Shown here: in pieces, positions 1 through 47,712 of the stretch
Layout of the letters: each line of letters opens with the position of its first letter
Position numbering within the stretch: the first letter of the stretch is position 1
DNA from: an uncultured Novosphingobium sp.
GTDB taxonomy: Bacteria; Pseudomonadota; Alphaproteobacteria; Sphingomonadales; Sphingomonadaceae
Direction: 5' to 3'
NCBI GenBank assembly: GCA_964413325.1
Contig: CAYPRK010000010.1
Location: 47,595-111,594 of the forward strand
DNA length: 64,000 nucleotides
Translations under genes and position numbers: made by a program
Notes under the pieces: model-generated
What the model was told of the DNA's origin: nothing
Databases searched by the model: none
The model's input: only the letters and a program-made list of their open reading frames with translations

Positions 1-447
1 CCCGAGACCGGCGGCACCAGCATCGACGAGGCGGCCGGGGCCAAGACAAGCAACGGCATCGGCGTGCGTATCGTTCCGCGCTTCGGCATTTCGATCCCGG
101 TGATCGTGCGGGTGGGCGAGACGACACTGACTGCCGGGCTCAAGGACCTGAAGCTCACCGCGCAGCCGGGCAGCCCGACGGCCCTTGCGCTCACGATTAC
201 GCGCGAAGGCACCCGCTCGGCCTTCGGCGATATCACGATCACTGCTCCCGGCGCGAAGAAGCCGGTGGCCGAAATCAAGGGCATCGGCGTCTACACCGAG
301 ATCGCCGAGCGCGCGGTGCAGGTGCTGATCGATCCCGCGACGGAGCCACGCTTCCTCGCCAAGGGCACGCGCTGGACAGTGAGCTATATCGATGACGACA
401 TGTCACCCGGCAAAGTGCTCGCGCGGCAGGAATTCATCGTGCCGTGA
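1..447 (+). CDS. Fimbrial/pilus periplasmic chaperone, C-terminal part (5' end lies outside the window)
   Basis: Frame is open from base 1. The 'GVRIVPRFGISIPVIVRVG' strand and following Ig-like segment resemble chaperone-usher chaperones. Its stop overlaps (GTGA) the start of the usher-like gene. Confidence 0.65.
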   Translation, partial: PETGGTSIDEAAGAKTSNGIGVRIVPRFGISIPVIVRVGETTLTAGLKDLKLTAQPGSPTALALTITREGTRSAFGDITITAPGAKKPVAEIKGIGVYTEIAERAVQVLIDPATEPRFLAKGTRWTVSYIDDDMSPGKVLARQEFIVP

Positions 448-3400
448 CCGACCGGGGGGGTGGGCACGACACGCGCGTACCATCCGGGTCGTGGCAGGCC
501 CTGCTGGGGGCGACGCTGGTCATCACGGGCGATGGCATCGCGGCTTTTGCGGCGGACATTGCGCGCCCAGCCGGGCCTGCCTCCCCGGTCTCGGCACGGC
601 CCACCTACAAGGCGGCGCAGGCGCGGGGGCTGCCGCGCCCCTGCTTCGGCAAGCAGGCAGCGCGCCGCTCTGCAGGCCACAAGGCCCGCCATCGCAAGCG
701 CATCCGCCACCAATGCACGATCAAATCGGCGCATCGCAAGAAGAAGCGGCATGGCTCCAGCCAAGCAAAGACGCATCCGCCGGGCCACGCCGCGCGGCAG
801 TTGAGCGCCCTCCCTCAGCCGCATTTTGGTGTAGCCGGAGCCGCCACCCGTCCGGCCGGCAAGGTTAGACTCGAAAAGGCCAGACTCGAAAAAGCGCGGC
901 TCGAAAAGGCGCGGCTCGAAAAGGCGCGGCTCGAAAAGGCGCGGCTCGAAAAGGCCAGGCTCGCAAAGGCGAGACGCGAAAAAGGCAGGCTTGCAAAAGC
1001 GCCAGACAACCATACTTCCACCGGGCGCGATGCCCTGCCATCGGTGCTGGCATGGAGCCCATGGAGCGCCGATCTGGAGCGCGATCCGCAAGCAGATCCA
1101 CCCGCCGCTGTACCTGCGGCGGCTGCCAGCGCATTGGCTGCGCTCCCGCCCCAGCCCGCCCCTTTGCCGCCAGGCCCTTCGCGCGCCAGCGACGAGGATT
1201 TTCTCGCCAGCCGCACCGCCAGTTACACAGGCGACACCATCTATCGCAGCGCGGCCGAAGCAATGGTCGCGCTGGGCGAGATGGAGGCCAATGACCGCGA
1301 TTTCGTGCTCTATGCTCGCGCGGCCGCCCCCGCTCTGCCCGAACCCCGACAGGCCGCCGAAATTGCCCCTGCGGAACTGGCTACTGCGCAACCGCTGCCA
1401 ACGCCAAACTTCGGCCCGCCTGCCGTTCTTCCATCGCCGCTGCCCGCAGAACCGCTGCCGCCCCCGAAACCGGCGCCGGACGCCGAACTCCCGCCGCTCC
1501 CCGCTGCTGCCGTCACAACGGACGCCCTTCCTGATTCAGCGCCCGCACTTGCTGACAGACATCCCGTGGTGGCGGCTCCGGTGGCTGCGCTTGCCCCACC
1601 TGCGCAGGAACCGGCACCGCACATGCTGGCAGAGGCACTGCCGGTTCCTGCTTTCGGCGGTGCACCCCCGTCCGCGTTAGCGCCCTCCCGGTCGGCTACC
1701 GCACCGCCGCAGAAACGCCTTGCCTATGCACCTGCCGGGTTGCCGCTCACGCCGGTCGCGACCTCCTTTGCCGTGCCTGCGGCGGCCGCCACGGCGAGTC
1801 TCGCAACCAGCCGCGGTGCGCTGCCCGCGCCAACCTTCGGCATCCCCGAGTCCGCCCAGAAGCCCGCCCCAAAGCCCGGCCTCACCGCCTCGCCGCTCCG
1901 CGCCAATGTCACCGATCAGGCCGGTCTTGGCGCGGCAACGAAAGCGCCGGTGATCAGCGAGGACGACGAACTCATCCTCCAGATCGAGACGTCGCAGGGC
2001 GAGATGAGCGACACGATCGTCGCTTATGGCCTGCGCCAGGGCGTTTATCTGCCGCTCGGTGCGCTGACCCGCTTCCTCGACCTGCCCATCGCGGTGAGCG
2101 ACGAAGGGCACTACGCAAGCGGCTGGTTTCTGAACGAAAAACGTACAATCGCGCTCAACTTGCGCGATGGTACGCTGGTTGTTGCAGGCAAGGCGATCCC
2201 GCTCGGCAAGGGCGATGCGGTGGCCTACGAAGGCGAGCTGTATCTCAAGGCCGAGCGCTTTTCCGATCTCTTCCCGCTCGATCTCAAGGTCGATCTGCGC
2301 GCGCAGACGATTGCGGTGAAGACGCGCGAGCCCTTCCCTTTCGAGGAGCGGCTGGCGCGCGAGGCGGACCGCGAGCAGCTGGCCTCACGCTCCAACAAGG
2401 AAGCACCCTCCCGCTTCCCGCGTGAGGAAACGCCGTGGCGCGCGCTTTCCGTGCCCGTCGGCGAAACCGAACTGCGCGCGCTGACCGACGACGATCTCGG
2501 CGCGCGGGTGGAAGCGGACTTGCGTCTGGCCGGCGATCTCGCCTTCATGACGGCGCGGGCCTATGCCAGCGTCTCGAGCCGTGACGGACTCACTGCCGCG
2601 CGCCTCGAAATGGGTCGGCGCGATCCGGATGGCGATCTGCTCGGGCCGCTCAAGGCCACCGAATTCCAGATCGGCGATGTCGCGACAGGGGCGCTGCCGA
2701 TCGGCCTGCGCGGGGTCAGCGGGCGCGGCGCTTTCGTCACCAATGCGCCGCTGGAGCAGGCCTCGATCTTCGATTCCGTCGATCTGCGCGGCGATCTGCT
2801 CGACGGCTACGAAGTCGAGCTGTATCGCAACAACACGCTGATCGGATCGACCCGCACGCCGGTGAACGGGCAATATGCCTTCCTGCAAGTGCCGGTCGAT
2901 TTCGGGCTCAACGTGTTCCGCCTCGTGTTCTACGGGCCGCAGGGCCAGCGCCGCGAAGTGGTGCGCAAGATCAGCGTGGGCGATGGCCGCCTCGCGCCCG
3001 GCCAGTTCATCTACAGCTTCGGCGCGGCGCAGAAGGACACCAACCTGTTCGGCGTGCGCAGCCCGCGCTTCAGCCCCGCCCCCGATTTCGGCGCATGGCG
3101 CGCGACGGCGGAGCTGGGCTACGGCATTTCCCGCACGCTCACCGCCACGCTCGGCGCGGCGAGCTGGGACAGCGGCAGCAAGCACCACTGGCTCGCCACG
3201 ACGGGTCTGCGCAGCGGCATCGGCGCGACGGCGCTGCGGCTCGACCTTGGCCTGCAGGACGGCGGCGGGACGACGGTCGAAGTCGGCCTTGGCGGCAAGC
3301 TTTTCGGCATCGGCTATAGCGCCACCCACGCCGAGTACGGCGGCGGCGCGATCGACGAAGTGCGGGCCTTCACCGCCGATCCGCTGCGCCGCGCGAGCGA

Positions 3401-5969: not shown

Positions 5970-7178
5970 TCAATAGCTGTAGGCGTTGATCGAACTGCGC
6001 TTGAAGATCGCGGTAACCGAATTGAGCAGCTGGGCCAGCTTGCCGATCTGCACCGAGTCCGATGTCGAGACGTAGACAAGGTCCTGATCGCGCATCTGGA
6101 ACGACTGCGCGAGCATCATGCCCTCGGCCGACTTGAAGTTGACGTGGTAGACCACCGGCACGGTATCACCCAGCGTCAGGTAATCCGGCAGCGCGGTCGT
6201 GCGCAGCTTCTTCGCTATGTCGGCCTGCTCGTAGCGCAGCACATAGACGCCTGCCGGATCGGCCTGCTTGTCGATGAGACCGCCGCCGTTGCCGATCGCC
6301 TCGGCCAGCGTCAGGCGGGCCTTGCCGAAGTAGACTTCGCTCTGCTTGTTGGTCGCACCGAGCACGACGACGCTCTGCGGTTCGTGATCGAGCGTGACGA
6401 GATCACCCGGGCGCAGGAAGATGTTCTGCGTGGGATCGCGCAGCACCGCCGACATGCGCAGCGAACGGACCTGACCGCCGCGGGTGAGCTGCACCAGCAT
6501 CTCGCGCGCCTTGCCTGTCGTGCCGCCCGCCGTGGCAACGGCGTCGAGCAGCCGAGTGCCGCTGAGCGCCAGCGGGAAGCGACCGGGCTTGGACACGTCG
6601 CCAGTGACGGTGACGGCGTTGTCGACGGTCTGGACGACCTGGACCAGCGCCTGCGTCTCGTTCGCCTTGCCGCGCAAGGCCTTGATGATATCAGCCTGGA
6701 CCTGACGCGGCGTGCGCCCGGCAGCTTTGACCTCGCCCACAAAGGGGACGATGATCGTGCCGGACTGATCGACCGTCTGGTTCGGCACGGTGGCCGATTG
6801 CGCACCGCTCAGACCGACCGGGGCCTGACCATTGGGGTACTGGTTCACGGGTCCGAGCAGGCCGCTGCCAAACTCCCAGAGCGTGACCGAAACGGTATCG
6901 CCGATGTGAATCGTGCCCTGCGGGACCACTTCTGGAGTGGTCAGCGGCGAAAGATCGTCACCGACCTTGCCGACGAGCGCGGTCAGCACGAGGCGGTCAA
7001 CCGGGACCATCATGAACGGCGCGTTGTCAGCCGATTCCCGGTCGATCGCCTGCAGCGAAGGGCCTTGCGCGGGCATCGCCGCGCAGCCGCCGAGGGCCAG
7101 TGCCAGGCTGGCGACGGCGGCGGCCCTGAGCAATGGGCCGCGCAGCGGTGAGGTGCGGTGGGCGGACGGTTCAATCAT
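5970..7178 (-). CDS. Polysaccharide export outer-membrane lipoprotein (Wza/KpsD/BexD/CtrA family)
   Basis: Lipobox 'LALGGC'; Poly_export motif 'VDQSGTIIVPFVGEVKAAGRTP'; SLBB repeats ('VTVTGDVSKPGRFPL', 'LTLAEAIGNGGG'); 'FQMRDQDLVYVS'. Start set at MIEPS (GTG at 7184 is an alternative). Confidence 0.9.
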   Translation of the reverse strand: MIEPSAHRTSPLRGPLLRAAAVASLALALGGCAAMPAQGPSLQAIDRESADNAPFMMVPVDRLVLTALVGKVGDDLSPLTTPEVVPQGTIHIGDTVSVTLWEFGSGLLGPVNQYPNGQAPVGLSGAQSATVPNQTVDQSGTIIVPFVGEVKAAGRTPRQVQADIIKALRGKANETQALVQVVQTVDNAVTVTGDVSKPGRFPLALSGTRLLDAVATAGGTTGKAREMLVQLTRGGQVRSLRMSAVLRDPTQNIFLRPGDLVTLDHEPQSVVVLGATNKQSEVYFGKARLTLAEAIGNGGGLIDKQADPAGVYVLRYEQADIAKKLRTTALPDYLTLGDTVPVVYHVNFKSAEGMMLAQSFQMRDQDLVYVSTSDSVQIGKLAQLLNSVTAIFKRSSINAYSY

Positions 7179-7282
7179 GTTCACGGCGGACCTCGGAGTC
7201 TGATGGACAAGTGCGATGGGCTCCGCACGCCGGCGCATGGCCTTCGGGAAACCCGGACGAAACGATGGGCGGCGCGGCGCGG

Positions 7283-9028
7283 TCATACGCGCTGGAGCCG
7301 GTTGAGCGGACGGGGCGAGCCGTTTGCGGTCGCGGGCCGCACGGCGGGAGCCTTGCCGACACCAGCGGCCGGCTGCCGACCGGGTGTAGCAGGCGCGGGC
7401 CCAGCGGCCGGAGCCGTCTCGCGGCTCCGCCACAGCTTGAGGTTCTGCAGCCGCTCGGTCTGCGCCGGATTGCCCGGTTCGACCCGCGCGAGAATGCTCT
7501 CGGCCTCCTCGTGCCGGTCCTGCGTGCGCAGCACTTCGGCGTAATCAAGCAAGGTCCGCGGCTCATCATCGGCAAGGGTCAGCGCGACCTGAAACAGCGC
7601 TTCGGCTTCCTCGTTCAAGCCGCGCGCCGAACAGGCCAGCGCCAGCCGGCGATAGGGCTCGGGCGTGCGCACGCTGAATTCGGACCACGCGCGCGCGGCC
7701 TTGCGCGCACCCTCAAGGTCATCGGCGGCGATCAGCGCATCGAGACGCATCGACCAGTAGGTGTTCTTGACCGCCCGGCGCTGCGGCTCGCGCTCCAGCA
7801 GGAGCAGCGCCCGCTTGGCATTGCCCGCCGCCATCGCGATCCGGGCGCGCGCCAGCGTGATCTCGTCACCCGGGATCTGCCCGCGCATGAACGGCAGGGT
7901 CTTGGCGAGGAGGTCCATCCGGTTGACCTTGCCCGCCGCCGTGAACAGCGCGACTGCAAGATCAGGGTTGGCCTCGATCAGGTCGAACCGCTCACCCAGG
8001 GTGGCGATCACCGCCTGCGGGTTCTCGGCCATCGATTCCCGGATCGCCTCGACATCCAGCGTATCGGCGCCGACGTAGCCGCGCACCATGCGGCTGGTGT
8101 TGAGCTCGATCACACCCTTGGTCGGGTGAACCTGATCCGGCTCCAGCGCGTGCTGCCGTTCGGACAGCGTGACGCTCTCGTAGCTTGGGAAGTAATCGAC
8201 GAAATCGTGCGTGAGCGTGATCGCCTCGGCCACAGTGCGCAGGACCGCCTTGGAATAGGCGTTGGCGACCATCACGTCGTCTTCGCGGAAGGTGGCAGCA
8301 AGCGGAACCGGCGAAACGGTGAGGATCACGCGGACTTCGGGATGGCCATGCTCGCGGATCAGCGCCATCGTTTCGCGCATCGCGTCCCGCACTTCATCGT
8401 GGCTCAGCACATGGAGCTGGAAGCGCTCCGGAAACGCGCGGATCATCGAGCGGCGCGGCGCTGTGTTGAGGTAAATGCCGGTCTGCTTGTCAAACCAGCA
8501 TTCGGCGAGGCCGAGCGTGATGATCACCACTCGGCAATCGCGCAGCGCCTGATAGGCATTGAGGATAGCCCGCCGCCGCGCACGGACAACCTCGATCGGC
8601 GCCGGCTTCAGCGCGTGGTTGAGATGCACGTCGATGAACTTGTCATCGTATATCTCGAAGAAGGCCTGCTCTTCGGAAAAGCTGTGCTGGGGATCGAGCG
8701 CCCAGCGGATCTCGTTGAGAATGGCAGGCGCGCCATAGTTGTTGAGGATGTTGTGACCGATGCGGCCAAATTCCGGATCGGCGCGGATGATATCGCGCGT
8801 CGGGATCAGGAAACCCTGGCTTTCCAGCACCTTCTCGATGTTGCGCGCGAAGCATGAGCCGATCGTGAAGATCCGCTCGCCCGCAGAGAAGCGGAACGAG
8901 GGCCGGAAGCCGGGCCGGGCGAGCGGCTCGAGCCGGTTGCCCAGTTCGCCGCGCCCGGGCCACGACGAGGCGGAGTTGGCCTTGACGTTGACCATGGCTT
9001 CATCGCCGGAAAGAACCAGCAGCGGCAT
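7283..9028 (-). CDS. GSCFA-domain protein (SGNH-like) with C-terminal TPR-like repeats
   Basis: 'IFTIGSCFARNIE', 'IITLGLAECW', 'ILTVSPVPL', 'YFPSYE' and 'DQVHP' are present. The helical Ala/Leu-rich C-terminus has TPR-like spacing. RBS TAGGAG lies 6 nt before the ATG at 9028. Confidence 0.85.
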   Translation of the reverse strand: MPLLVLSGDEAMVNVKANSASSWPGRGELGNRLEPLARPGFRPSFRFSAGERIFTIGSCFARNIEKVLESQGFLIPTRDIIRADPEFGRIGHNILNNYGAPAILNEIRWALDPQHSFSEEQAFFEIYDDKFIDVHLNHALKPAPIEVVRARRRAILNAYQALRDCRVVIITLGLAECWFDKQTGIYLNTAPRRSMIRAFPERFQLHVLSHDEVRDAMRETMALIREHGHPEVRVILTVSPVPLAATFREDDVMVANAYSKAVLRTVAEAITLTHDFVDYFPSYESVTLSERQHALEPDQVHPTKGVIELNTSRMVRGYVGADTLDVEAIRESMAENPQAVIATLGERFDLIEANPDLAVALFTAAGKVNRMDLLAKTLPFMRGQIPGDEITLARARIAMAAGNAKRALLLLEREPQRRAVKNTYWSMRLDALIAADDLEGARKAARAWSEFSVRTPEPYRRLALACSARGLNEEAEALFQVALTLADDEPRTLLDYAEVLRTQDRHEEAESILARVEPGNPAQTERLQNLKLWRSRETAPAAGPAPATPGRQPAAGVGKAPAVRPATANGSPRPLNRLQRV

Positions 9029-9037
9029 TCTGTTCTC

Positions 9038-10138
9038 CTACAACTTTTCGCCGGGCCGGCGTGCCGGACCCGTGCCGACCGGCTGGCCGTACACCAGCAG
9101 GGCAGTCTTGCGATTGACCGGGCTGTCGCAGGCTCCGCCCTGCACGGCCCGGTTGCGCCACAGCATGGCACCAGCGAGCCCGTCACGGCGGATCGCCTCA
9201 TGCACGAAGCGCGCATCGGCTTCGCTCGTCTCGGCCAGATCGAACAGGGCCAGCACGCGCCGCCCATCGATCGCGCCGCCTTCGCGCAACATTGCCATCT
9301 GGCGGGCATAGCTCTCGGGCAGACTGCCTTGCGCATTGCGCGCCCACAGCCAGATCGTGGTGTAATCGAACTGCGTGACCAGTTGGCGGGCGACCGGGCC
9401 GGTGATCCCGGTCCAGGTCTGGCTCGGCGCATCAAGCGGGTTGATCATCACGCCGGCCTTGCGGCCAGCGCCGTGGACCAGCGCGGCAAAGCGCAGCAGG
9501 AAATCGAGCGACTGCTCGGGCGTGCGCCCGTCACCCACTTCGTAGTCGAGGAACACGCCGGTTGCATTGGCCTGCAGGCGCTTGGCGGCGAGCACGCAAG
9601 TATCGTCCGCGCTCACGGGTCCGTTGTCCGGCTGGACCTGCTCGGCGACGAGCCTGATCCCGGCCTTGCGCGCCAGTGCCTCGCCTTTCGCATCAGCGCC
9701 GAGCAGCCGGGCAGTCTGCGCCAGCGTGCAGGCGTTGGCGCGCTCCACTGTGGTGAACGGCGAGCGCTGGCGGCGCAGCGCGCCCGACGCGGGCTGGAAA
9801 TTCGGCTTGCGCGGCAGCTGCCGGCCCGCGCGGTTGTAAAGCGGCGCGGTCGAGCGGTTGCCCCACTGGAAGTACCACAGACCGACCCCGCGCTGCGCGG
9901 ATGCGAGCTTGCCGAGTTGCATCGTGGCGGCGTCGGTCAGCGGATAATGACTGTAGCCTGCCTCGCCCATCTGCGGTGGCGGGGCTTGCTGGAAGACGCG
10001 GAACGGCGGGCGCGCAGGACGGCTTGCGGCAAAGCACGAGGCCCCGTCGCGGCTGCGAGCCGCAGCAGCGTGCTCGCCGCCCACCAGCGCCGCAAGCGCC
10101 GCGCAGGCGCTCCAGTAGCAGGCGCCCCGCAGGTTCAC
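9038..10138 (-). CDS. Secreted protein with GH18-like (beta/alpha)8 glycoside-hydrolase motifs (putative)
   Basis: Signal-peptide-like N-terminus. 'GVFLDYE' resembles GH18 DxDxE and 'GLAGAMLW' resembles the GH18 C-terminal GLGGxMxW strand. GTGA overlap with the upstream ABC gene. Confidence 0.5.
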   Translation of the reverse strand: MNLRGACYWSACAALAALVGGEHAAAARSRDGASCFAASRPARPPFRVFQQAPPPQMGEAGYSHYPLTDAATMQLGKLASAQRGVGLWYFQWGNRSTAPLYNRAGRQLPRKPNFQPASGALRRQRSPFTTVERANACTLAQTARLLGADAKGEALARKAGIRLVAEQVQPDNGPVSADDTCVLAAKRLQANATGVFLDYEVGDGRTPEQSLDFLLRFAALVHGAGRKAGVMINPLDAPSQTWTGITGPVARQLVTQFDYTTIWLWARNAQGSLPESYARQMAMLREGGAIDGRRVLALFDLAETSEADARFVHEAIRRDGLAGAMLWRNRAVQGGACDSPVNRKTALLVYGQPVGTGPARRPGEKL

Positions 10139-10875
10139 GCCGAAGTCGTGCCTTCCGCAAGCACCGCGTCCTGCGCAGCCGGTTGAACCGTTTCGCCTTC
10201 GGTCTGTGCGGCAGACACTGCAGCGGCCACCGGCGGCAGCGAGCTATCAAACGCGGCGAGCGCATCGGCGATGGTATCGTAGAACCGGGCGCCGCCCTTT
10301 GTCAGCACGATGCCGCAATCGCAGAGCTGCTCGGCCATGCGCGGCTGGCGCGTGGCGATGATCGTTCCGGCCTCGGCCGCACGCGCGGCATAGAGCCGGG
10401 TGCACAGCTCGCGCACTTCAGGCTGCGGCGGGCCGATCACGTTGTCGAACAGATAGCAATCGAAGGGCAGGGTATAAGTGAGCAGGTAGCTGAACGCGAT
10501 GCGCGTCTGGACCGAAAGCTCGCGCAATGGAAACTCGAGCTCGTCCTGCAACATGCAGACGTCGCTCAGGAATTCCACCACCTCATCCGGATCGGCGCCA
10601 TAGATGCGCGCGGCAAACATCGCGTTCTGGCGCATGGTGCTGGTCTGGCGGAAGCCGCGCTGGAAGCCGCCGGGGAACGACAGGCGTGCCCCGCGCTCGA
10701 TGCGGCCGCCCTGCGGCGTTTCGATGCCGGCGAGCAGGTTGAGCAGCGTGGTCTTGCCGCTGCCCGTGCCGCCGAGAATGGCGACGCGCCGGTCCGTCGG
10801 GATGACGAGGTCCAGCTCCGAAAAGATCGGCCGGCCCTTGGCGTAGGCGTGGCTCAGTCCGTCGACGCGGATCAT
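10135..10875 (-). CDS. kpsT: KpsT/BexA-like capsule ABC transporter nucleotide-binding subunit with degenerate catalytic motifs
   Basis: Collinear with KpsT (Walker A GGTGSGKTT, 'SFPGGF', 'ARIYG', 'FDCYLFD', 'LCDCGIVL', 'FYDTIADA'). Signature, Walker B Glu, D-loop and H-loop are altered. RBS AAGGAA precedes the ATG at 10875. Confidence 0.8.
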   Translation of the reverse strand: MIRVDGLSHAYAKGRPIFSELDLVIPTDRRVAILGGTGSGKTTLLNLLAGIETPQGGRIERGARLSFPGGFQRGFRQTSTMRQNAMFAARIYGADPDEVVEFLSDVCMLQDELEFPLRELSVQTRIAFSYLLTYTLPFDCYLFDNVIGPPQPEVRELCTRLYAARAAEAGTIIATRQPRMAEQLCDCGIVLTKGGARFYDTIADALAAFDSSLPPVAAAVSAAQTEGETVQPAAQDAVLAEGTTSA

Positions 10876-10879
10876 CGTA

Positions 10880-11737
10880 TCATTCCTTCTCTTCAAGATA
10901 ACGGCGCGTTCCCGCCTCGAACAGCAAACCGAGCGTGAACAGCACCAGCGCGACCATCAGCACGTAGAACTGGTCGGTCAGCGCCTGGGGGTAGAACGGG
11001 TAGAACGCCCGCCGGAACCAGTTCACCCCGTGCATCACCGGGTTGAGCCCGAAGAAGTAGCGGCTTGACGGCGTGAGGTAGGCAGCGACGAAATAAGGCC
11101 CGGAAAAGTGCAGCGAAGCGCGCGCGATGGCGGGCCACACCACGTCCCACACCGGCACGACGCGCGCGAGGACGGCGTTGAAGATGCCGGTCGCGAGGCC
11201 AAGCAGGAACAGCGTCGCCAACGCTTCAACGGCGGTCAGCGGATCGTAGGGGATCGCCGCTTCCACGCCGCCGAACCAGTAAAGGCCGAGGAAGAACAGC
11301 GCAGCGACGGCAGCGCTGCTGACGATGTGGATGACGGCGTGCACCATAAGGTGATCAAGCGGCCGTTCGATCGGAAACCGGTTGCGGTGCGCCAGCACGT
11401 TGAGCGGCTGCCGGATGCGCAGCGAGGTGTGGATGAACAGGTAGATCGGGAACACGCCGGTGCCGAGGAAAAGCAGCAGGCTGTGCCCGTAAGGCGGGGT
11501 GCGGCTGAGCGCGGAGAACAGCACCCCGATGGTCGCGACGATGACCAGCGGCTCCACGCCCGCCGCGATGTAGCCCAGCGCAAAGCTCTGCCCGTGGCGC
11601 GTCTCCGCCTCACGGTAGAGCAGCGCGGAAAAGACATTGTACTGGCTGCTGAGCGCCCGGCGCACCCCTTCCCAGGGCGAAGGTCCGCCCTGGGAAGCAG
11701 GCCTTCCTGCCATCGCGCCCGACGGAGGCGTCGTCAC
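10880..11737 (-). CDS. kpsM: KpsM/BexB capsule ABC transporter permease
   Basis: 'ALLYREAETRHG...LGYIAAGVEP', six hydrophobic segments, 'FGLNPVMHGVNWFRRAFYP'; lies between kpsE-like and kpsT-like genes. Confidence 0.85.
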   Translation of the reverse strand: MTTPPSGAMAGRPASQGGPSPWEGVRRALSSQYNVFSALLYREAETRHGQSFALGYIAAGVEPLVIVATIGVLFSALSRTPPYGHSLLLFLGTGVFPIYLFIHTSLRIRQPLNVLAHRNRFPIERPLDHLMVHAVIHIVSSAAVAALFFLGLYWFGGVEAAIPYDPLTAVEALATLFLLGLATGIFNAVLARVVPVWDVVWPAIARASLHFSGPYFVAAYLTPSSRYFFGLNPVMHGVNWFRRAFYPFYPQALTDQFYVLMVALVLFTLGLLFEAGTRRYLEEKE

Positions 11738-13170
11738 CGACCGTGCTCCATGACCGAATTGCTGACGAGCAGACCGATCAGCCAGATCATCCCGGCAATC
11801 ACCGCCAGCAGCATCAGTTCGGACAGACGGTCCGGACCGCTCGGGCTCTCGCCCACGCGCGGCTTGACATAAGTCGTCAGGTAAACCCGCTGCGCATCTG
11901 ACATCGCCTGCGAATTGCTGAGCGCGGCCTGCGCATTGGACAGCACGCTGAGCGAGGCCTGCAATTGCGCTGTCAGATCGGCGTAGCGGTTCGACTTCTC
12001 GGAATTGACGACATCGACCGAAGACGCCAGCGCGCGCTCGTTCGCGGCAAGCTGTTCGCGCAGCAGGCGGATCTGCGGCGCGTTGGGATTGTTGAGCTGC
12101 GCCATCAGCACCTGGATCTGCGCCTGAATCTGCGCGATGTTGGTGCGGGTGTTGGTCGAAAGATCACCATTCGCCTTGAAGACACCGAGCGATGGGGAAT
12201 CGATGCCCTTGTGCGAAGACGAAAGCGAGGCGATTTCGCGGCGCAGATCGGTCACCTGCTGGCTGGCGCGGCGCACCTGCTGCTCGGCAAAGCGGACGGT
12301 ATCCTGCTGCGATTGTTGCCCGATCTGGTTGACCAGATCGTTCGACTGCTGGAGCAGGGTGTTGGCGATCGCGTAGCTGTCCTGCGCGGTGTAGGCCTTC
12401 ACGCGGACCACGGCGAGACCGGTGGTCACGTCGTAATCCGAGAAGATCATGTTCTTCCAGTAGCGCGCGAGGCGCTCGGCGGAAGCACCATCGCCGACGC
12501 GCGAGAACGGATCGCCCGGCTTGTTATACATCGCCTTGAGGTTGACCTTCTTGTCGAGGTCAACGGCGGCCTGCTGGCTGCGCACGTAATCGGCAACGGT
12601 GAAGTTATCGAGCAAGTCGGTGCCCGGTGTCGGATTGCCGCCAAACAGCGCCGACAGCGAAGCGCCGCCCGAGGCGATCGACCCCGGCTGGCCTACCGGC
12701 ACGCGCACGCTGAAGCGGAACTCGGTGGTGTAGATGTCCGGCGCGAGCAGGAGGAGGTAGAACGCGCCAAGCACGACGGGAGCGACGAACGAGACGCCGA
12801 ACCAGATCCGCCGGCCCAGCGAGCGACGCGTGCGGCGGCGCGGCAGGGCCAGACCCGCGTTCGAGCCGCCATCCTGTGCGGGCAGCGCACCGGTCGATGC
12901 GGCAGTGCGCGTGAAGAACAGGCCCTTGCCGGAATCGTCCTGCGTGCCTGGTGTCACAGTAGCGGGATCGGCCTGCACGGCTTCCTCGCTCCAGAATTCG
13001 CGCGCCGAGCGCAGCGGTGGCGGGGCTTCGCCTCCGCGCGCCGCGCTGCGCGTGCGCGGCAGGCGAGCGGAGATTTCGCCGCGCGTCGCACCCGCTTCAC
13101 TATCAACCGCAGGCCCCGCCCCCGGCGTGCCTTCGCGTTCACCAACCATTGTCTCGGATTCCCCCAGCAT
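11734..13170 (-). CDS. kpsE: KpsE/BexC/CtrB polysaccharide co-polymerase of ABC-dependent capsule export
   Basis: N-terminal TM followed by 'APDIYTTEFRFSVR', 'VADYVRS', a coiled-coil region, 'QRVYLTTYVKP' and a C-terminal TM. About 100 aa of extra low-complexity N-terminus; start uncertain (13149, 13170 or 13209). Confidence 0.85.
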   Translation of the reverse strand: MLGESETMVGEREGTPGAGPAVDSEAGATRGEISARLPRTRSAARGGEAPPPLRSAREFWSEEAVQADPATVTPGTQDDSGKGLFFTRTAASTGALPAQDGGSNAGLALPRRRTRRSLGRRIWFGVSFVAPVVLGAFYLLLLAPDIYTTEFRFSVRVPVGQPGSIASGGASLSALFGGNPTPGTDLLDNFTVADYVRSQQAAVDLDKKVNLKAMYNKPGDPFSRVGDGASAERLARYWKNMIFSDYDVTTGLAVVRVKAYTAQDSYAIANTLLQQSNDLVNQIGQQSQQDTVRFAEQQVRRASQQVTDLRREIASLSSSHKGIDSPSLGVFKANGDLSTNTRTNIAQIQAQIQVLMAQLNNPNAPQIRLLREQLAANERALASSVDVVNSEKSNRYADLTAQLQASLSVLSNAQAALSNSQAMSDAQRVYLTTYVKPRVGESPSGPDRLSELMLLAVIAGMIWLIGLLVSNSVMEHGR

Positions 13171-13198
13171 AACTGTATCGCGCCCCCTTGCAGACGGC

Positions 13199-14449
13199 CT
13201 ACATGGCAATCGGCAGCGGCACTTCGTCCTTGCCGTTCAGCAGAAAGAGGTTGGGCGCCGGGCGCGGCTCGGGCCGCTCTGGCCGCTCGGTCGACCAATG
13301 CGACAGGCACGGGATCTTGCTCCGGTCACACCGGCCAGCGAATCGGCGGGCGATTTCGGAAACTTCCGCGGCCAGTCCTTCCCGCAGAAACGTCGGCTTG
13401 AGGCCAAGCTTCAGGAACGAATCGTTGCACACGTTGAGCTCGTTTTCGCTCGCTTCCACGCGCGGATTGGGCACGTGCTGGTAATCGACGCCGGTCATGT
13501 CAGCGATCATCCGCGCCAGATCGATCAGACGGTGCGTCTCGGTCATCTGATTCATGATCGCCACGCGCTCGCCCTTTGCGGGCGGATTGGCGATCGCGAG
13601 TTCGATGCAGCGCACGCTGTCGCGGATGTGGATGAAGGCACGGGTCTGCCCGCCGGTGCCGTGCACGGTCAGCGGGTAGTCGATCGCCGCCTGCATCAGG
13701 AAGCGATTGAGCACCGTGCCGTAGTCGCCGTCATAATCGAAACGGTTGATCAGGCGCGGATCGGCCGAAGTCTCGGCGGTCTGCGTGCCCCACACGATGC
13801 CCTGATGCAGATCGGTGATGCGGGTCTGGTAGTTGCGGTTGTAGTACCAGAAGAACAGCGCGTCCTGCGCCTTGGTCATGTGGTACACGCTGCCCGGGTG
13901 TGCCGGATAGAGCACTTCGATCTGCTGCTCGCCCGCGGGCGTATCGACGCGGACCGGAAGGTAGCCTTCGGGAATGGTCATCCCCGCCGTGCCATAACCA
14001 TAGACGCCCATCGTGCCGAGGTGGACGAGATGGATATCGAGACCGCTTTCGACGATCGCCGAGAGCACGTCATGAGTGCCGTTGAGATTGTTGCGCACGG
14101 TGTACCGGCGCTCGGCCGAACCCTTCATCGAGTACGGCGCGGCCCGCTGTTCGGCGAAGTGCACGATGGCCTTGGGGCGCTCGCGGCGGATCAGATCGAC
14201 GAGGGCATCGTAATCCTGCCCGATCGTCATCTTCTCGAAGCGGATCGTCCGACCACTGACTTCGCGCCACGCTTCGATCCGGACCTCGATCGGCCGGATG
14301 GGGGTCAGCGAATCAGCGCCCAGATCGACATCGATCTTACGGCGCGACAGATTGTCGACGATGACGACGTTATAGCCGATGTGCGAAAGGTGCAGCGCCG
14401 TCGGCCAGCCGCAAAACCCGTCGCCGCCCAGAATGATGACTGTTTCCAT
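13199..14449 (-). CDS. sqdB: UDP-sulfoquinovose synthase
   Basis: 'ILGGDGFCGWPTALHLS', 'HFAEQRAAPYSMK', 'HLVHLGTMGVYGY', 'PGSVYHMTK', 'TDLHQGIVWG', 'NRFDYDGDYGTVLNRF', 'GTGGQTRAFIHIRD' and 'NPRVEASEN' are characteristic SqdB/SQD1 sequences. Confidence 0.95.
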   Translation of the reverse strand: METVIILGGDGFCGWPTALHLSHIGYNVVIVDNLSRRKIDVDLGADSLTPIRPIEVRIEAWREVSGRTIRFEKMTIGQDYDALVDLIRRERPKAIVHFAEQRAAPYSMKGSAERRYTVRNNLNGTHDVLSAIVESGLDIHLVHLGTMGVYGYGTAGMTIPEGYLPVRVDTPAGEQQIEVLYPAHPGSVYHMTKAQDALFFWYYNRNYQTRITDLHQGIVWGTQTAETSADPRLINRFDYDGDYGTVLNRFLMQAAIDYPLTVHGTGGQTRAFIHIRDSVRCIELAIANPPAKGERVAIMNQMTETHRLIDLARMIADMTGVDYQHVPNPRVEASENELNVCNDSFLKLGLKPTFLREGLAAEVSEIARRFAGRCDRSKIPCLSHWSTERPERPEPRPAPNLFLLNGKDEVPLPIAM

Positions 14450-14506: not shown

Positions 14507-14857
14507 TCAGGCCATTGCCTGACGGTCGTGGCGGCGGACGACCCGAAGCCCTTCGAGCAGCGCGCCAAGGATCCAGCGCTGTTCGACAGGCGATGCACCA
14601 TCCTTGTAGTAGGCCAGCACTTCACGCACGGTGGTGGGGAAAGCGGCGGCAGCGGCACGCATGCGATGCGCCTCACCCTCGGTCATCAGATCGAACACGG
14701 CTTCGACTTCTTCGATCTCGGCAGTATCGAGCTGCACCAGAATCTCTTCCGGGAGCTGCAGATCATGCTTCTTAACCTTCCCAAGCACTTCGCGCGGACC
14801 ATTATCGGCCTGGCGAACGAGCTTGAGCGTGCGGGAATCGTCAATAAATAGAAGCAT
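14507..14857 (-). CDS. Hypothetical protein (~116 aa)
   Basis: Fills the gap upstream of sqdB on the same strand with normal composition; no recognised motif. Start set at MLLFIDD. Confidence 0.65.
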   Translation of the reverse strand: MLLFIDDSRTLKLVRQADNGPREVLGKVKKHDLQLPEEILVQLDTAEIEEVEAVFDLMTEGEAHRMRAAAAAFPTTVREVLAYYKDGASPVEQRWILGALLEGLRVVRRHDRQAMA

Positions 14858-14937
14858 TTGAAACAACCCCTTATATACAAACGCACACAATCGGACCGAC
14901 AACCTCTAAAAAGGCGTCGGAGCAAATCACCTCGCAA

Positions 14938-14961
14938 CTTGATGGCAAGAAAACCATCAAG
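14938..14961. promoter_or_regulatory. Perfect 8-bp inverted repeat with 8-nt spacer (candidate operator or hairpin)
   Basis: CTTGATGG-caagaaaa-CCATCAAG in the AT-rich gap upstream of the hypothetical-sqdB unit. Confidence 0.35.
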
Positions 14962-15091
14962 AATATTTCGTATTCAAGCCCGTGCGAATTTCATTTCCAT
15001 CAGATTCGATCTTGAAGTTAACCTATTTTGTTCAATAGGATAAACGCCTGTCGATGTCTGATCCTTCGCCCCTCCCGAAATCCATAATGAT

Positions 15092-16069
15092 TCATTGTGA
15101 CAGGGGTGCTACATCACCGTATGGGACCATTAACCTGTCGACAGCACGTTTGTTGCGCCGCCGAAACCATGCCCAGGTCTTGCGCAGACCTTCGGGAAGC
15201 GGTGTCGCGGGCTCGAATCCCAGCATTCCGCGGGCCCGCGAAATGTCGCACCAGGTCTCGACGATCTCGCCGCGGCGCGCTTCGCGATATTCCACCGTTA
15301 CCGGCAGCGGCGCGACGACCGTGCGGATCATGTCAATGAGATGGTTGACCGAAACCGGGACACCCGAACCAAGCTGGATCACGCTTGAAACGTCGCAATC
15401 GAGCGAGCGCAGGATGCCGTCGCACAAGTCCTCGACAAAGATGAAATCGCGCACCTGCGACCCGTCGCCATACACGATCAGAGGCCGGCCGCGCAGGATC
15501 TCCTTGTAGAAGCTGGCGACCACGCTGCCCTTGTGGAACGAGCGCGGGCCGTAGACATTGGCAAAGCGCAGCGAGAGCGAGCGCAGCCCGTAGCTGCCGC
15601 TCCACGCCGAGCAAAACCCCTCGACCGCCATCTTCGACGCGCCGTAGGGCGCCAGTGGCCGGGGCACGAGGTTTTCATGCACCGGCGGCGGCACATCGCC
15701 GATGATCGCACCGCCGGTCGAGGCATTGATCAGCCGCGGCACACCGCGCGCGCGCATCGCCTGCAGCAGGCGGAACGAACCGATCACATTGACGTCAAAG
15801 TTGTGCAGCGGATCGTTGATCGAATCGATCACGCGGGTATCTGCGGCGAGGTGGATCACCGCTTCGATCCCCTGCAGCGCGCTGTGCAGCGCGTCGCTGT
15901 CACGGATATCGCCGTGAATGAACTCGCCCTCGAAGTTGCCCAGATGCTCGCGCCGTCCTAGCACTTCGGAATCGAGCACACGCACGGTGTGCCCAGCCTT
16001 TTCTAGCCGCGGCACCAGATTGCTCCCCACGAAGCCGCAGCCGCCCGTTACCAGAATTCTCTTGCCCAT
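15092..16069 (-). CDS. NAD-dependent nucleotide-sugar epimerase/dehydratase (GalE/WcaG-like extended SDR)
   Basis: 'ILVTGGCGFVG', 'IHLAA', 'ASTGGAIIG', YGASK, 'LRFANVYGP', 'RDFIFVED'. An alternative GTG start at 16084 overlaps the glycosyltransferase stop. Confidence 0.9.
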   Translation of the reverse strand: MGKRILVTGGCGFVGSNLVPRLEKAGHTVRVLDSEVLGRREHLGNFEGEFIHGDIRDSDALHSALQGIEAVIHLAADTRVIDSINDPLHNFDVNVIGSFRLLQAMRARGVPRLINASTGGAIIGDVPPPVHENLVPRPLAPYGASKMAVEGFCSAWSGSYGLRSLSLRFANVYGPRSFHKGSVVASFYKEILRGRPLIVYGDGSQVRDFIFVEDLCDGILRSLDCDVSSVIQLGSGVPVSVNHLIDMIRTVVAPLPVTVEYREARRGEIVETWCDISRARGMLGFEPATPLPEGLRKTWAWFRRRNKRAVDRLMVPYGDVAPLSQ

Positions 16070-16080
16070 CGATTGCCCCA

Positions 16081-45998: not shown

Positions 45999-46678
45999 CA
46001 GCCATCAAACGGGACAGCCGCGAGCGCGGGTTCTCGCTTGTCGAGATGCTGGTGGCGCTCGCCGTGACCGGCTTTGCCGCGCTGCTGCTGGCAACCGCGG
46101 TCGGCCGCATCGAAGGCGTGGTGCACAAGGGGCGGACTTCCTCGCAGGCGCTCGCGACCGTCTCGGCCGCGCAGCTTGGCCTGCGCGAGCGACTGGAGCG
46201 GGCCTTGCCCGAGCCTGATCCGCAGAACCCCAGTTCCGCCGTGGACTTTCGCGGCCAGTCCGCCGTGATGGACTGGGTCGGCACGCCGATCGACGCCGCT
46301 GCACCCGATGCGCTGTGGCGCTATCGTCTGGCGCGCACCGCCGATGGCCGGATTGCACTCTATCACCGCAGCAGCCTTTCCACTCTCGGCGATGAGCGCG
46401 GTCCCAGTCTGATCGGCTGGAGCGCTACCCCGCTGCTCGATGGCACCGCCGCTCTCGAGCTTTCCTATTTCGGCACGATTTCCGGCCCCGGCTCGCCGCG
46501 CGCGTGGCAGCAGAGCTGGGCTGCGCGCCGTGCCCTGCCCCTGCTGGTGCGCGTGCTCGTCCGCTTCCCTGAAGGCGACCGGCGGCGCTGGGCCGAACTC
46601 GTGGTGCGGCCGCGCGCCGTCTTGCCCGAAGATTGCCCGCCGCAGGGCGGCAGCGAACCCTGTGGAGATCCAGCATGA
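45995..46678 (+). CDS. gspJ: Minor pseudopilin GspJ
   Basis: 'RG|FSLVEMLVALAV'; 'W...ALPLLVRV'. Confidence 0.85.
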   Translation: MTAIKRDSRERGFSLVEMLVALAVTGFAALLLATAVGRIEGVVHKGRTSSQALATVSAAQLGLRERLERALPEPDPQNPSSAVDFRGQSAVMDWVGTPIDAAAPDALWRYRLARTADGRIALYHRSSLSTLGDERGPSLIGWSATPLLDGTAALELSYFGTISGPGSPRAWQQSWAARRALPLLVRVLVRFPEGDRRRWAELVVRPRAVLPEDCPPQGGSEPCGDPA

Positions 46679-47712
46679 GCGCCAACCTGAGCAGGCGCGG
46701 CATTCTCGATGCCGATATGCGCACCGTGGGCGGATGGATCGCCGATGGCACGCGCTGGTGGATCGGCGAACTGGGCGCGCTGGTTCCGCCAGCCATCGCC
46801 CATGCCCTGCGACCTGCGGCGACCAGCGTCGATTGGGCGCCGCAAAGAGCCGCCTTCTCGCCCGAACCGGCGCGCGGCAAGCCTTGGACGGTGCGCCTGC
46901 CAGCGAACATCGCGCTGGTCCGGCAGGTCGAGTTACCCGCTGTCGCGCCCCGCGCGCTTGGCACCATGGTAAGGCTTGAGGCCGACCGGCTGATGCCGTT
47001 CCCGCCCGGCGGACCGGTGGTGATCGCCGCGCTCCCGCAATCATCGGGCGCGCCGGGTGGCCGACAGCCCACCACCATCGCCGGGCTTGCCCCGGACGCC
47101 GCACGCGCGCTGGCTGATGCGATTGCGGCGGAACCGGCGCCCCCGCGCGCTGTGCTGGCACCGCTTCCCGGCGGCGGCGAGATCGATCTGCTGCCCGCCA
47201 TGGCCCGCGCCGGTCTGGTTCCCGATGAAGCAGGCCGCGCGCGGATCTGGTGGATGATCGTCGCCGCGCTGTTCGCACTCAACCTCGCGCTCATCACCTG
47301 GCGCGACATGGCGGCGGTCGACCGGCTGAACGATGCGATAGAGGCGCAGCAGCCCGCGCTCGCCGTCGCGCGCCGCATTTCTGGCCGCATCCGCGCCGAC
47401 AGTGCCCTGGCCGGTGCCGTCGCCGCAGAGCGCGAGAAGGCGGAGCCGTTGGCGCTGATGGCGCGGGTCGCCGCAGCGCTGCCGTCGGGTGTTTGGCTGC
47501 AGCGCTGGGGCTGGCAGGATGGCACGCTGCACCTTGCCGGCATGCGCCCGCCCGCGAGCGATGTCGCGGGCGCGCTGCGCAGGGCTGGCTTTGCCACCGT
47601 CCGCTATGCCGACAGCGCGGGCGACAGCAGCGCCGAGGCCGCCGCAACGCCGCTCGGCGTGCCCTTCGACGTCGTGCTGCAAGCGCCCGGCGCGGAAAAG
47701 GCCAGGCCATGA
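46675..47712 (+). CDS. gspL: Type II secretion protein GspL (PilN-like periplasmic domain)
   Basis: 'WWIGELGALVP' N-terminus, one TM, 'LPSGVWLQRW'; ATGA overlap with gspJ. Confidence 0.75.
   Translation: MSANLSRRGILDADMRTVGGWIADGTRWWIGELGALVPPAIAHALRPAATSVDWAPQRAAFSPEPARGKPWTVRLPANIALVRQVELPAVAPRALGTMVRLEADRLMPFPPGGPVVIAALPQSSGAPGGRQPTTIAGLAPDAARALADAIAAEPAPPRAVLAPLPGGGEIDLLPAMARAGLVPDEAGRARIWWMIVAALFALNLALITWRDMAAVDRLNDAIEAQQPALAVARRISGRIRADSALAGAVAAEREKAEPLALMARVAAALPSGVWLQRWGWQDGTLHLAGMRPPASDVAGALRRAGFATVRYADSAGDSSAEAAATPLGVPFDVVLQAPGAEKARP

Follow-up and report, generated by a model that had tools for sequence, protein, structure and literature searches.

What powers a polysaccharide exporter whose only ATPase-type subunit lacks the residues for burning ATP? 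This question is raised by a gene cluster of an uncultured Novosphingobium sp. (assembly GCA_964413325.1, contig CAYPRK010000010.1, positions 47,595 to 111,594), within a window of 64 kb, by which we mean the whole stretch of DNA that was analyzed. Export of capsules and O-antigens through transporters of the ATP-binding cassette (ABC) type is regarded as driven by repeated ATP hydrolysis in a homodimer of nucleotide-binding domains (NBDs). In the window, the transporter is encoded together with a single NBD, the KpsT-like protein P0001, whose P-loop is retained and whose signature, catalytic Glu, D-loop, and H-loop are replaced; the replacements recur throughout a clade, and the gene is under purifying selection. 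We consider it probable, though well short of certain, that P0001 is a pseudo-ATPase docked to KpsM which still binds Mg-nucleotide and acts as a gate, scaffold, or nucleotide sensor for the exporter.

P0001 Has the Predicted Fold of KpsT and Replaced Catalytic Motifs

The gene in question is the following:

10135..10875, minus strand: kpsT-like gene for the putative pseudo-ATPase P0001, 246 amino acids plus stop codon (open reading frame, KpsT alignment, AlphaFold2 model, dN/dS)

The open reading frame (ORF) is uninterrupted over its 246 codons, as a preliminary description of this DNA had stated, and ATG at 10875 is preferred over TTG at 10896 as its start because all homologs begin with MI-. 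The good ribosome-binding site mentioned in that description can be located as AAGGAA, 8 nt 5′ of the ATG and within the final codons of kpsM, from whose stop codon the ATG is separated by a gap of 4 nt. An overlap with the next gene had also been claimed, which holds only if orf366 starts with GTG at 10138 (GTGA overlap); at locus L001, an ortholog of the present one, the start of this gene is called about 140 nt further on.

Residues 1–212 make up the ABC NBD fold and residues 213–246 an Ala/Pro-rich tail. In the AlphaFold2 model, the mean predicted local distance difference test (pLDDT) score is 90.4, with values above 92 over residues 1–212 and a disordered tail. The best Foldseek match of this model is KpsT of 8tsl (TM-score 0.81/0.88; root-mean-square deviation 1.9 Å), followed by Wzt, TagH, and TarH among more than 1000 matches to NBDs in PDB, and the predicted fold is that of a clean NBD with a RecA-like and a helical subdomain. 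Family models capture P0001 poorly. The match to Pfam ABC_tran (PF00005) is limited to residues 20–64, and the sole KpsT-type NCBIfam model that matches, VexC NF011724, is also the best one (E 2e-14), at 53.5 bits versus a cut-off of 313, so that the curated equivalog score is not reached. PGAP names the protein “ATP-binding cassette domain-containing protein” and IMG names it KpsT; the automatic label [quoted passage not shown] masks the degenerate state of such proteins.

The motifs of P0001 were read from a HMMER alignment to KpsT of PDB 8tsi/8tsh (E 2.8e-28, residues 15–218):

10747..10773, minus strand: Walker A/P-loop, GGTGSGKTT, residues 35–43, retained
10648..10653, minus strand: Q-loop position, R75-Q76 where KpsT has Q-G (GFQ changed to GFR)
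10504..10518, minus strand: signature position, LSVQT in place of YSSGM/LSGGQ
10441..10458, minus strand: Walker B, CYLFDN versus YLIDE of KpsT; Asp144 present, catalytic Glu replaced by Asn145 (codon AAC at 10441-10443)
10423..10434, minus strand: D-loop position, GPPQ where KpsT has AVGD
10348..10356, minus strand: H-loop position, ATR where KpsT has VSH

All four substitutions reported earlier, in the signature, Walker B, D-loop, and H-loop, are recovered in this alignment, as is the intact Walker A motif, and a fifth change that had escaped notice is the replacement of the Q-loop Gln by Arg75. Compared with a competent NBD, P0001 has Walker A and is devoid of the signature, the catalytic Glu, the H-loop His, and the D-loop. 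Hydrolysis in the closed ABC dimer depends on the H-loop His and on the Ser/Gly of the signature, and work on the “linchpin” of HlyB reportedly showed that hydrolysis by its ABC domain needs the H-loop His. As P0001 possesses neither the catalytic Glu, nor the H-loop His, nor the signature Ser/Gly, canonical ATP hydrolysis by this protein is very unlikely. In KpsT, the exchange E151Q by itself abolishes capsule secretion and traps ATP (PMC11041684).

Orthologs Share the Motif Losses Under Purifying Selection

Four to five catalytic motifs lost in a window that stems from a metagenome assembly might betray a decaying gene, or an assembly or sequencing artifact, in a defunct capsule locus. We regard this explanation as hardly credible. 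The ORF is intact, and when P0001 is compared with its orthologs from three genomes, i.e., a complete chromosome of a metagenome-assembled genome (MAG), a Sphingomonadales MAG, and Novosphingobium rhizosphaerae LY, a cultured strain, dN/dS ratios (Nei-Gojobori) of 0.21, 0.07, and 0.21 are obtained. This comparison, which had been proposed as a check, thus reveals purifying selection, and P0001 falls in the same range as kpsM (0.10–0.17) and kpsE (0.17–0.23) from the same genomes. The entire operon is syntenic across the three genomes and under purifying selection as well. Orthologs with 79–91% identity have the same residues at the altered motifs, and identical motif states are present in independent genomes, one of them the complete genome of a cultured isolate (L009); the earlier judgment that the changes are not sequencing errors is thereby sustained, and the opposite case that it had envisaged, canonical orthologs beside a decaying copy, is contradicted. 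Furthermore, the stretch is found at full word share in several independent sequencing runs from sludge and other metagenomes.

The locus is carried by the complete genome of N. rhizosphaerae LY (CP137861) and by the MAG chromosomes OZ245852 and CBDCBI010000002, and it is also present in the cultured Novosphingobium sp. FKTRR1 and NDB2Meth1. Cultured strains with the locus make the question of the power source directly testable. In one run that is merely guessed to be RNA, contigs are 87–94% identical to parts of the operon and include one of 451 nt that spans the junction of kpsM and the kpsT-like gene; as evidence for transcription this is weak, coming from a relative, and is suggestive only.

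P0001 Is Placed in a Sister Clade of KpsT

The first protein search with P0001 returned 264 relatives, of which 33 were aligned. Thirty-two of the aligned sequences, which reach down to about 30% identity, lack the same motifs, the exception being the canonical KpsT P0030, and the family has conserved blocks of its own (PTDRRVAILG, LPFDCYLFDN, and ATRQPR). Searching a profile of degenerate members against 1.84 billion representatives at 50% identity yields 651 clusters at E ≤ 1e-30. The motif survey (n = 176) comprises the 33 relatives and 143 of the best 150 profile representatives. Fully canonical motifs (YS.GM, DE,.VGD, and SH) occur in 32 of the 176 sequences, and about 140 have lost both the signature and the H-loop His. 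Among these roughly 140, 87 retain the Gly-Lys of Walker A and the Asp of Walker B without the catalytic Glu, 27 retain the Glu, and some 25 also lack the P-loop Lys. Where the Glu is lost, its position is mostly occupied by Asn (46 sequences), Gly (30), or Asp (17). At the position of the H-loop His, Arg, Ser, Gly, Lys, or Asn is found, and 86% of the degenerate clade have Thr175.

In a FastTree maximum-likelihood tree, which is unrooted and built from a sample chosen with the degenerate-family profile, one split with a support of 0.947 separates all 32 canonical KpsT and 6 intermediates from the signature-less sequences including P0001, which points to a single old divergence rather than to repeated recent decay. 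Columns that are 100% conserved in canonical KpsT and lost in the clade are Y-S-x-G-M, the Glu, G and D of the D-loop, and the His, whereas the KpsT-specific structural positions S66, P68, G70, N84, F138, D139, Y141, and L142 persist. Judged by sequence relationships, P0001 is therefore placed in an ancient and selectively maintained sister clade of KpsT. The losses listed in the preliminary description stand; that they characterize a family and are no peculiarity of one gene had gone unseen there. Hundreds of clusters from several bacterial phyla would keep the full transporter architecture with an NBD unfit for the canonical mechanism and no replacement encoded nearby.

When the nearest canonical KpsT, P0030, is used as query, only Rhodobacterales-type names are found among the matches listed, and tblastn of canonical KpsT against plasmids lists records of Rhodobacterales and Rhizobiales and offers no lead to sphingomonads. 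Many degenerate members of 450–780 amino acids bear tetratricopeptide repeats (TPRs) at the C-terminus (P0161, P0165, P0200, P0201, P0205, P0225, P0231, P0182, P0191, and P0128 among the profile matches listed); a methyltransferase domain is attached to one member, and another is fused to an F5/8 type C domain as well. A Rosetta-stone link from such fusions to the GSCFA-TPR protein of the window was not used, since the TPR part of the latter has no specific similarity to the fused TPRs. Profile matches with tandem NBDs were considered as natural fusions of a canonical and a degenerate NBD and rejected, since both halves are canonical.

The Cis Half of the Nucleotide Pocket Seems to Be Preserved

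Conservation, expressed as the fraction of sequences with the commonest residue in the 32-sequence family, is distributed unevenly over the motifs:

Walker B block LPFDCYLFDN: 0.89, the family maximum
PTDRRVAILG block: 0.86
H-loop block: 0.75
Walker A: 0.70
family background: 0.51
signature position: 0.50, not above background
D-loop position: 0.47
A-loop: 0.36

G40 and K41 of Walker A and D144 of Walker B do not vary at all across the alignment of this family. Across the clade, the P-loop Lys coexists with the Walker B Asp in 114 sequences and both are absent from 13, while Lys alone is found in 1 and Asp alone in 13 (Fisher p 2e-10, uncorrected for phylogeny). Given this co-retention and the conservation of the cis blocks at 0.70–0.89, the cis half of the nucleotide pocket looks functional in most clade members including P0001. 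The trans half, i.e., the signature and the D-loop, which clamps ATP between two NBDs, appears freed from selection.

The same conservation might be understood differently, namely as that of a real ATPase of non-canonical type, in which ATP or another nucleoside triphosphate would be hydrolyzed, perhaps slowly, by substitute residues (e.g., Arg176/Arg179 of ATRQPR, Q76, or downstream acidic residues) and would power export. Indeed, the Walker B block and that of the former H-loop (GxIxATRQPR) are among the most conserved parts of the family, Thr175 is widespread, about half of the clade has Arg or Lys in place of the His, and there are the 27 members with a catalytic Glu. However, the Glu position is variously taken by Asn, Gly, Asp, Ala, or His, and that of the His by R, S, G, K, or N, so that no single conserved replacement chemistry emerges; in addition, signature and D-loop are relaxed, and one of the roughly 25 members without P-loop Lys still resides in an export context. 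In this case, from an Acetobacteraceae MAG (L019, 3109-5247, plus strand), Walker A reads GEPPEARTL and the NBD appears to be fused in frame with a KpsE-like C-terminal part, in a record that has masked bases. We therefore think it quite improbable that P0001 is an ATPase of this kind.

P0001 Is the Only NBD Encoded With the Exporter

The operon to which P0001 belongs comprises the following further genes:

16081-18474, minus strand: soluble glycosyltransferase of family 4 (GT4) type, 797 amino acids, 0 transmembrane (TM) segments (family scan, TM prediction)
15092-16084, minus strand: NAD-dependent sugar epimerase/dehydratase, 330 amino acids (family scan)
14507-15091: gap that separates the epimerase from the sqdB-like gene, its sole ORF having 131 amino acids and no family match
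13199..14449, minus strand: short-chain dehydrogenase/reductase resembling UDP-sulfoquinovose synthase, 416 amino acids (NF041015, 1e-99, 334 bits, below the cut-off of 575)
11734..13209, minus strand: kpsE-like inner-membrane/periplasmic adaptor of the polysaccharide co-polymerase type PCP-3, 491 amino acids as longest ORF (TIGR01010, 1.3e-46)
10880..11737, minus strand: kpsM-like permease, 285 amino acids, 5–6 TM segments (ABC2_membrane 8.6e-10; KpsM NF050053 5e-18, below cut-off)
9038..10138, minus strand: orf366, 366 amino acids, hydrophobic N-terminus, no family match, directly after the kpsT-like gene
7283..9028, minus strand: GSCFA-family protein with C-terminal TPRs, 581 amino acids (family scan)
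5970..7433, minus strand: kpsD/Wza-like outer-membrane polysaccharide export protein, longest ORF (family scans, ortholog alignment)

The only PDB match of the KpsM-like protein is the KpsM chain of 8tsh (1e-11) and that of the KpsE-like protein is the KpsE chain of 8tsh (1e-22), so that P0001, KpsM, and KpsE each have their counterpart chain of the KpsMT-KpsE complex 8tsh/8tsi as best or only match. The true start of the kpsD/Wza-like gene probably lies downstream of that of the longest ORF, because orthologs align from about residue 74–121. Cytoplasmic synthesis genes of the operon occupy 15092..18474 (epimerase and glycosyltransferase); in the glycosyltransferase, the GT4 domain spans about residues 86–445, and some 350 C-terminal residues are without Pfam match. 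The slot of the 131-amino-acid ORF is filled in the orthologous locus L001 by a gene for 116 amino acids (6015-6365), and copies of orf366 with 45–83% identity adjoin the NBD gene in Sphingomonadales and Caulobacteraceae. With a soluble glycosyltransferase and no polytopic membrane protein besides KpsM, the operon encodes no other path across the inner membrane. A Capsule_synth (KpsC/KpsS) domain was found in none of the 21 proteins of the window that were scanned.

Canonical KpsT sequences, used in phmmer and hmmsearch, match only the P0001 ORF in the window, which agrees with the earlier statement that it holds no other ABC ATPase. The only other ORFs of real genes with GxxxxGK[ST] are a GspE-type ATPase of a type II secretion system and an ORF of 803 amino acids (60419-62830), which by its motif looks like a Lon-type protease; two more matches on the minus strand (32507-34519 and 46468-46932) lie in ORFs of no recognized ATPase.

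Loci with degenerate KpsT were collected by a pattern scan for the degenerate motifs in 185,579 species genomes, which gave 13 loci from Novosphingobium and other Sphingomonadales plus one Acetobacteraceae, by exact-protein look-ups, which added loci from Caulobacteraceae, Gemmataceae, and unassigned soil contigs, and by a scan of JGI metagenomes, which gave 26 further loci. The set analyzed for context consists of 22 loci and the 26 metagenome loci, representing about 40 distinct places. At none of these was a canonical NBD found near the degenerate gene within the flanks examined, which are at most 10 kb a side and far shorter on many short contigs. At every locus with gene calls the degenerate NBD gene follows a kpsM-like gene, and kpsE-like and kpsD-like genes are close by in most of the longer loci.

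Another explanation is an asymmetric transporter, in which P0001 would pair on the KpsM dimer with a competent NBD of the KpsT/Wzt type from elsewhere in the genome, which hydrolyzes ATP. Degenerate NBDs do normally occur in heterodimers. Also, in Gemmataceae (L005/L006) two clade paralogs are encoded in one cluster, at 13-714 (minus) and 10001-10702 (plus); one has YLFDN and adjoins a kpsM-like gene, whereas the other keeps YLIDE, has lost the signature and the H-loop His, and adjoins a KpsE-like gene for 676 amino acids. These two may form a hetero-NBD pair, and such pairs might exist in some lineages. Yet even the paralog with the Glu is devoid of signature and His. In P0001 the cis half (Glu, H-loop, and Q-loop) and the trans half (signature and D-loop) are both degenerate on the same chain, and its heterodimer with a canonical KpsT would therefore be left without a fully consensus site, whereas known heterodimers split the defects between their NBDs such that one composite site is fully consensus. 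Considering, in addition, that no canonical NBD was found in the flanks examined (up to 10 kb) at about 40 loci, and the translational coupling of P0001 to kpsM across 4 nt, as expected of a dedicated subunit, we judge the asymmetric arrangement unlikely.

The sqdB-like gene (67–93% identity) travels with kpsE-kpsM-pseudo-kpsT-kpsD in Sphingomonadales, Caulobacteraceae (67%), and Gemmataceae (69%), as illustrated by its copies in the window (13199-14449, minus), in L003 (19416-20654), and in L005 (12352-13698). At other clade loci, genes of the Sulfotransfer_2 family or genes resembling phosphoadenosine phosphosulfate (PAPS) reductase (PAPS_reduct) or CysQ (Inositol_P) are present. Taken together, the sqdB-like, sulfotransferase, PAPS-reductase-like, and CysQ-like genes that accompany clade loci are hints that the exported polysaccharide is sulfonated or sulfated.

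Upstream of these genes, the minus strand of the window at 18731-41349 encodes a TpsA-like giant ORF of 4419 amino acids, Porin_5, TonB_2, ExbD, ExbB fused to Laminin_G_3/DUF2341, TpsB (ShlB/POTRA), and a PBP-like protein, and type II secretion genes (GspE, GspF) begin at 41759 on the plus strand. The ExbB-ExbD-TonB genes (34–37 kb) were considered as an alternative motor of the exporter and rejected, since they are part of a TpsA/TpsB/porin cassette and were not seen in the vicinity of the Caulobacteraceae and Gemmataceae loci. On one soil contig (L021/L036, 8666-15262), the pseudo-KpsT module stands beside genes of the type VI secretion system/extracellular contractile injection system type (TssF, TssG, Hcp, VipB, and gp25), which is probably mere adjacency.

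How Might the Exporter Be Powered?

According to the reading that we favor, P0001 would be the cytoplasmic subunit of a polysaccharide exporter of the KpsM-KpsE-KpsD type. Its clade has lost the signature, the D-loop, and the His of the H-loop, and most members, P0001 among them, have lost the catalytic Glu as well, which would make a canonical ATP-sandwich hydrolysis cycle impossible for P0001; with Lys/Thr of the P-loop and Asp of Walker B retained, Mg-nucleotide would still be bound at the P-loop. KpsM remains the only inner-membrane route for the polymer that the operon encodes. Energy might come from the membrane potential, through its action on a strongly anionic (sulfonated) chain, from continued polymerization in the cytoplasm, or from an unlinked ATPase. 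With greater reserve, we propose as a possibility, less likely true than not, that this class of exporters, with KpsM, KpsE, KpsD, and a pseudo-KpsT, moves its polymer without ATP hydrolysis by its own NBD, the nucleotide being a gate or sensor and the anionic sulfonated or sulfated chain being driven by the membrane potential and/or cytoplasmic polymerization.

Several points weigh against a pseudo-ATPase without hydrolysis. Twenty-seven clade members retain the catalytic Glu, so that some hydrolysis within the clade, residual or of a non-canonical kind, is conceivable, and pseudoenzymes sometimes have catalytic residues that migrated. The aromatic residue of the A-loop is not conserved (0.36), and therefore the ligand may not be ATP. 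Besides, substrates of canonical KpsMT are polyanions as well, yet their export depends on ATP hydrolysis, and charge therefore does not obviously entail an electrophoretic drive.

The choice offered by the preliminary description, between an active KpsT borrowed from elsewhere and a nucleotide sensor in an exporter powered differently, is narrowed and not settled by these data: defects gathered on one chain and the absence of a canonical NBD from the flanks examined speak against the former, and a maintained clade with co-retained Lys and Asp speaks for the latter. If an unlinked ATPase is recruited after all, a new kind of exporter with a shared NBD would be at hand; if a type V ABC scaffold became a hydrolysis-independent, nucleotide-gated conduit, the view of energy coupling in polysaccharide secretion would change.

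Comparison With Known Systems

The closest known relative of P0001, by sequence and by fold, is KpsT of Caldimonas/Schlegelella thermodepolymerans (PDB 8tsh/8tsi/8tsl; Nature 2024, PMC11041684). Like this KpsT, P0001 is a short single-domain NBD whose gene neighbors are kpsM, kpsE, and kpsD, and it retains KpsT-specific features, i.e., S-[WF]-P-x-G after the second strand, F138-D139, and Y141-L142. Unlike KpsT, it has its signature, catalytic Glu, D-loop, H-loop His, and Q-loop Gln all replaced, and in contrast to the KpsT system, kpsC/kpsS (Capsule_synth), the poly-Kdo lipid-anchor genes of group 2 capsules, were not found among the window proteins scanned. In this last respect the window operon would resemble the Vi locus, which is devoid of kpsC/kpsS and whose exporter contains VexC, the best NCBIfam match of P0001, yet one far below cut-off. 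Wzt and TagH, from type V ABC exporters of polysaccharides and teichoic acids, are the next matches by fold. VexC, Wzt, and TagH are all canonical ATPases, in contrast to P0001.

Full-text searching of the literature found neither a description of degenerate KpsT/Wzt proteins nor one of a bacterial ABC-type exporter with a pseudo-NBD as its sole NBD. With pseudoenzymes and pseudo-ATPases in general (reviewed in PMC10211241), P0001 shares a conserved fold, lost catalytic motifs, and purifying selection. The nearest parallel is provided by the degenerate sites of CFTR NBD1, TAP1, TM287/288, BmrCD, and ABCB11, in which the catalytic Glu and the H-loop His are likewise lost and Walker A is kept. 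Such sites of heterodimeric ABC exporters bind ATP stably without hydrolyzing it. In these exporters, the signature defect resides on the partner NBD, one consensus site is left, and the two NBDs are co-encoded or fused. For P0001, neither a second, different NBD (in the 64-kb window or, apart from the degenerate Gemmataceae paralog, within the flanks examined at the roughly 40 loci) nor complementary defects are seen. P0001 differs from these exporters as a single chain that bears every defect and serves as the only NBD of its locus.

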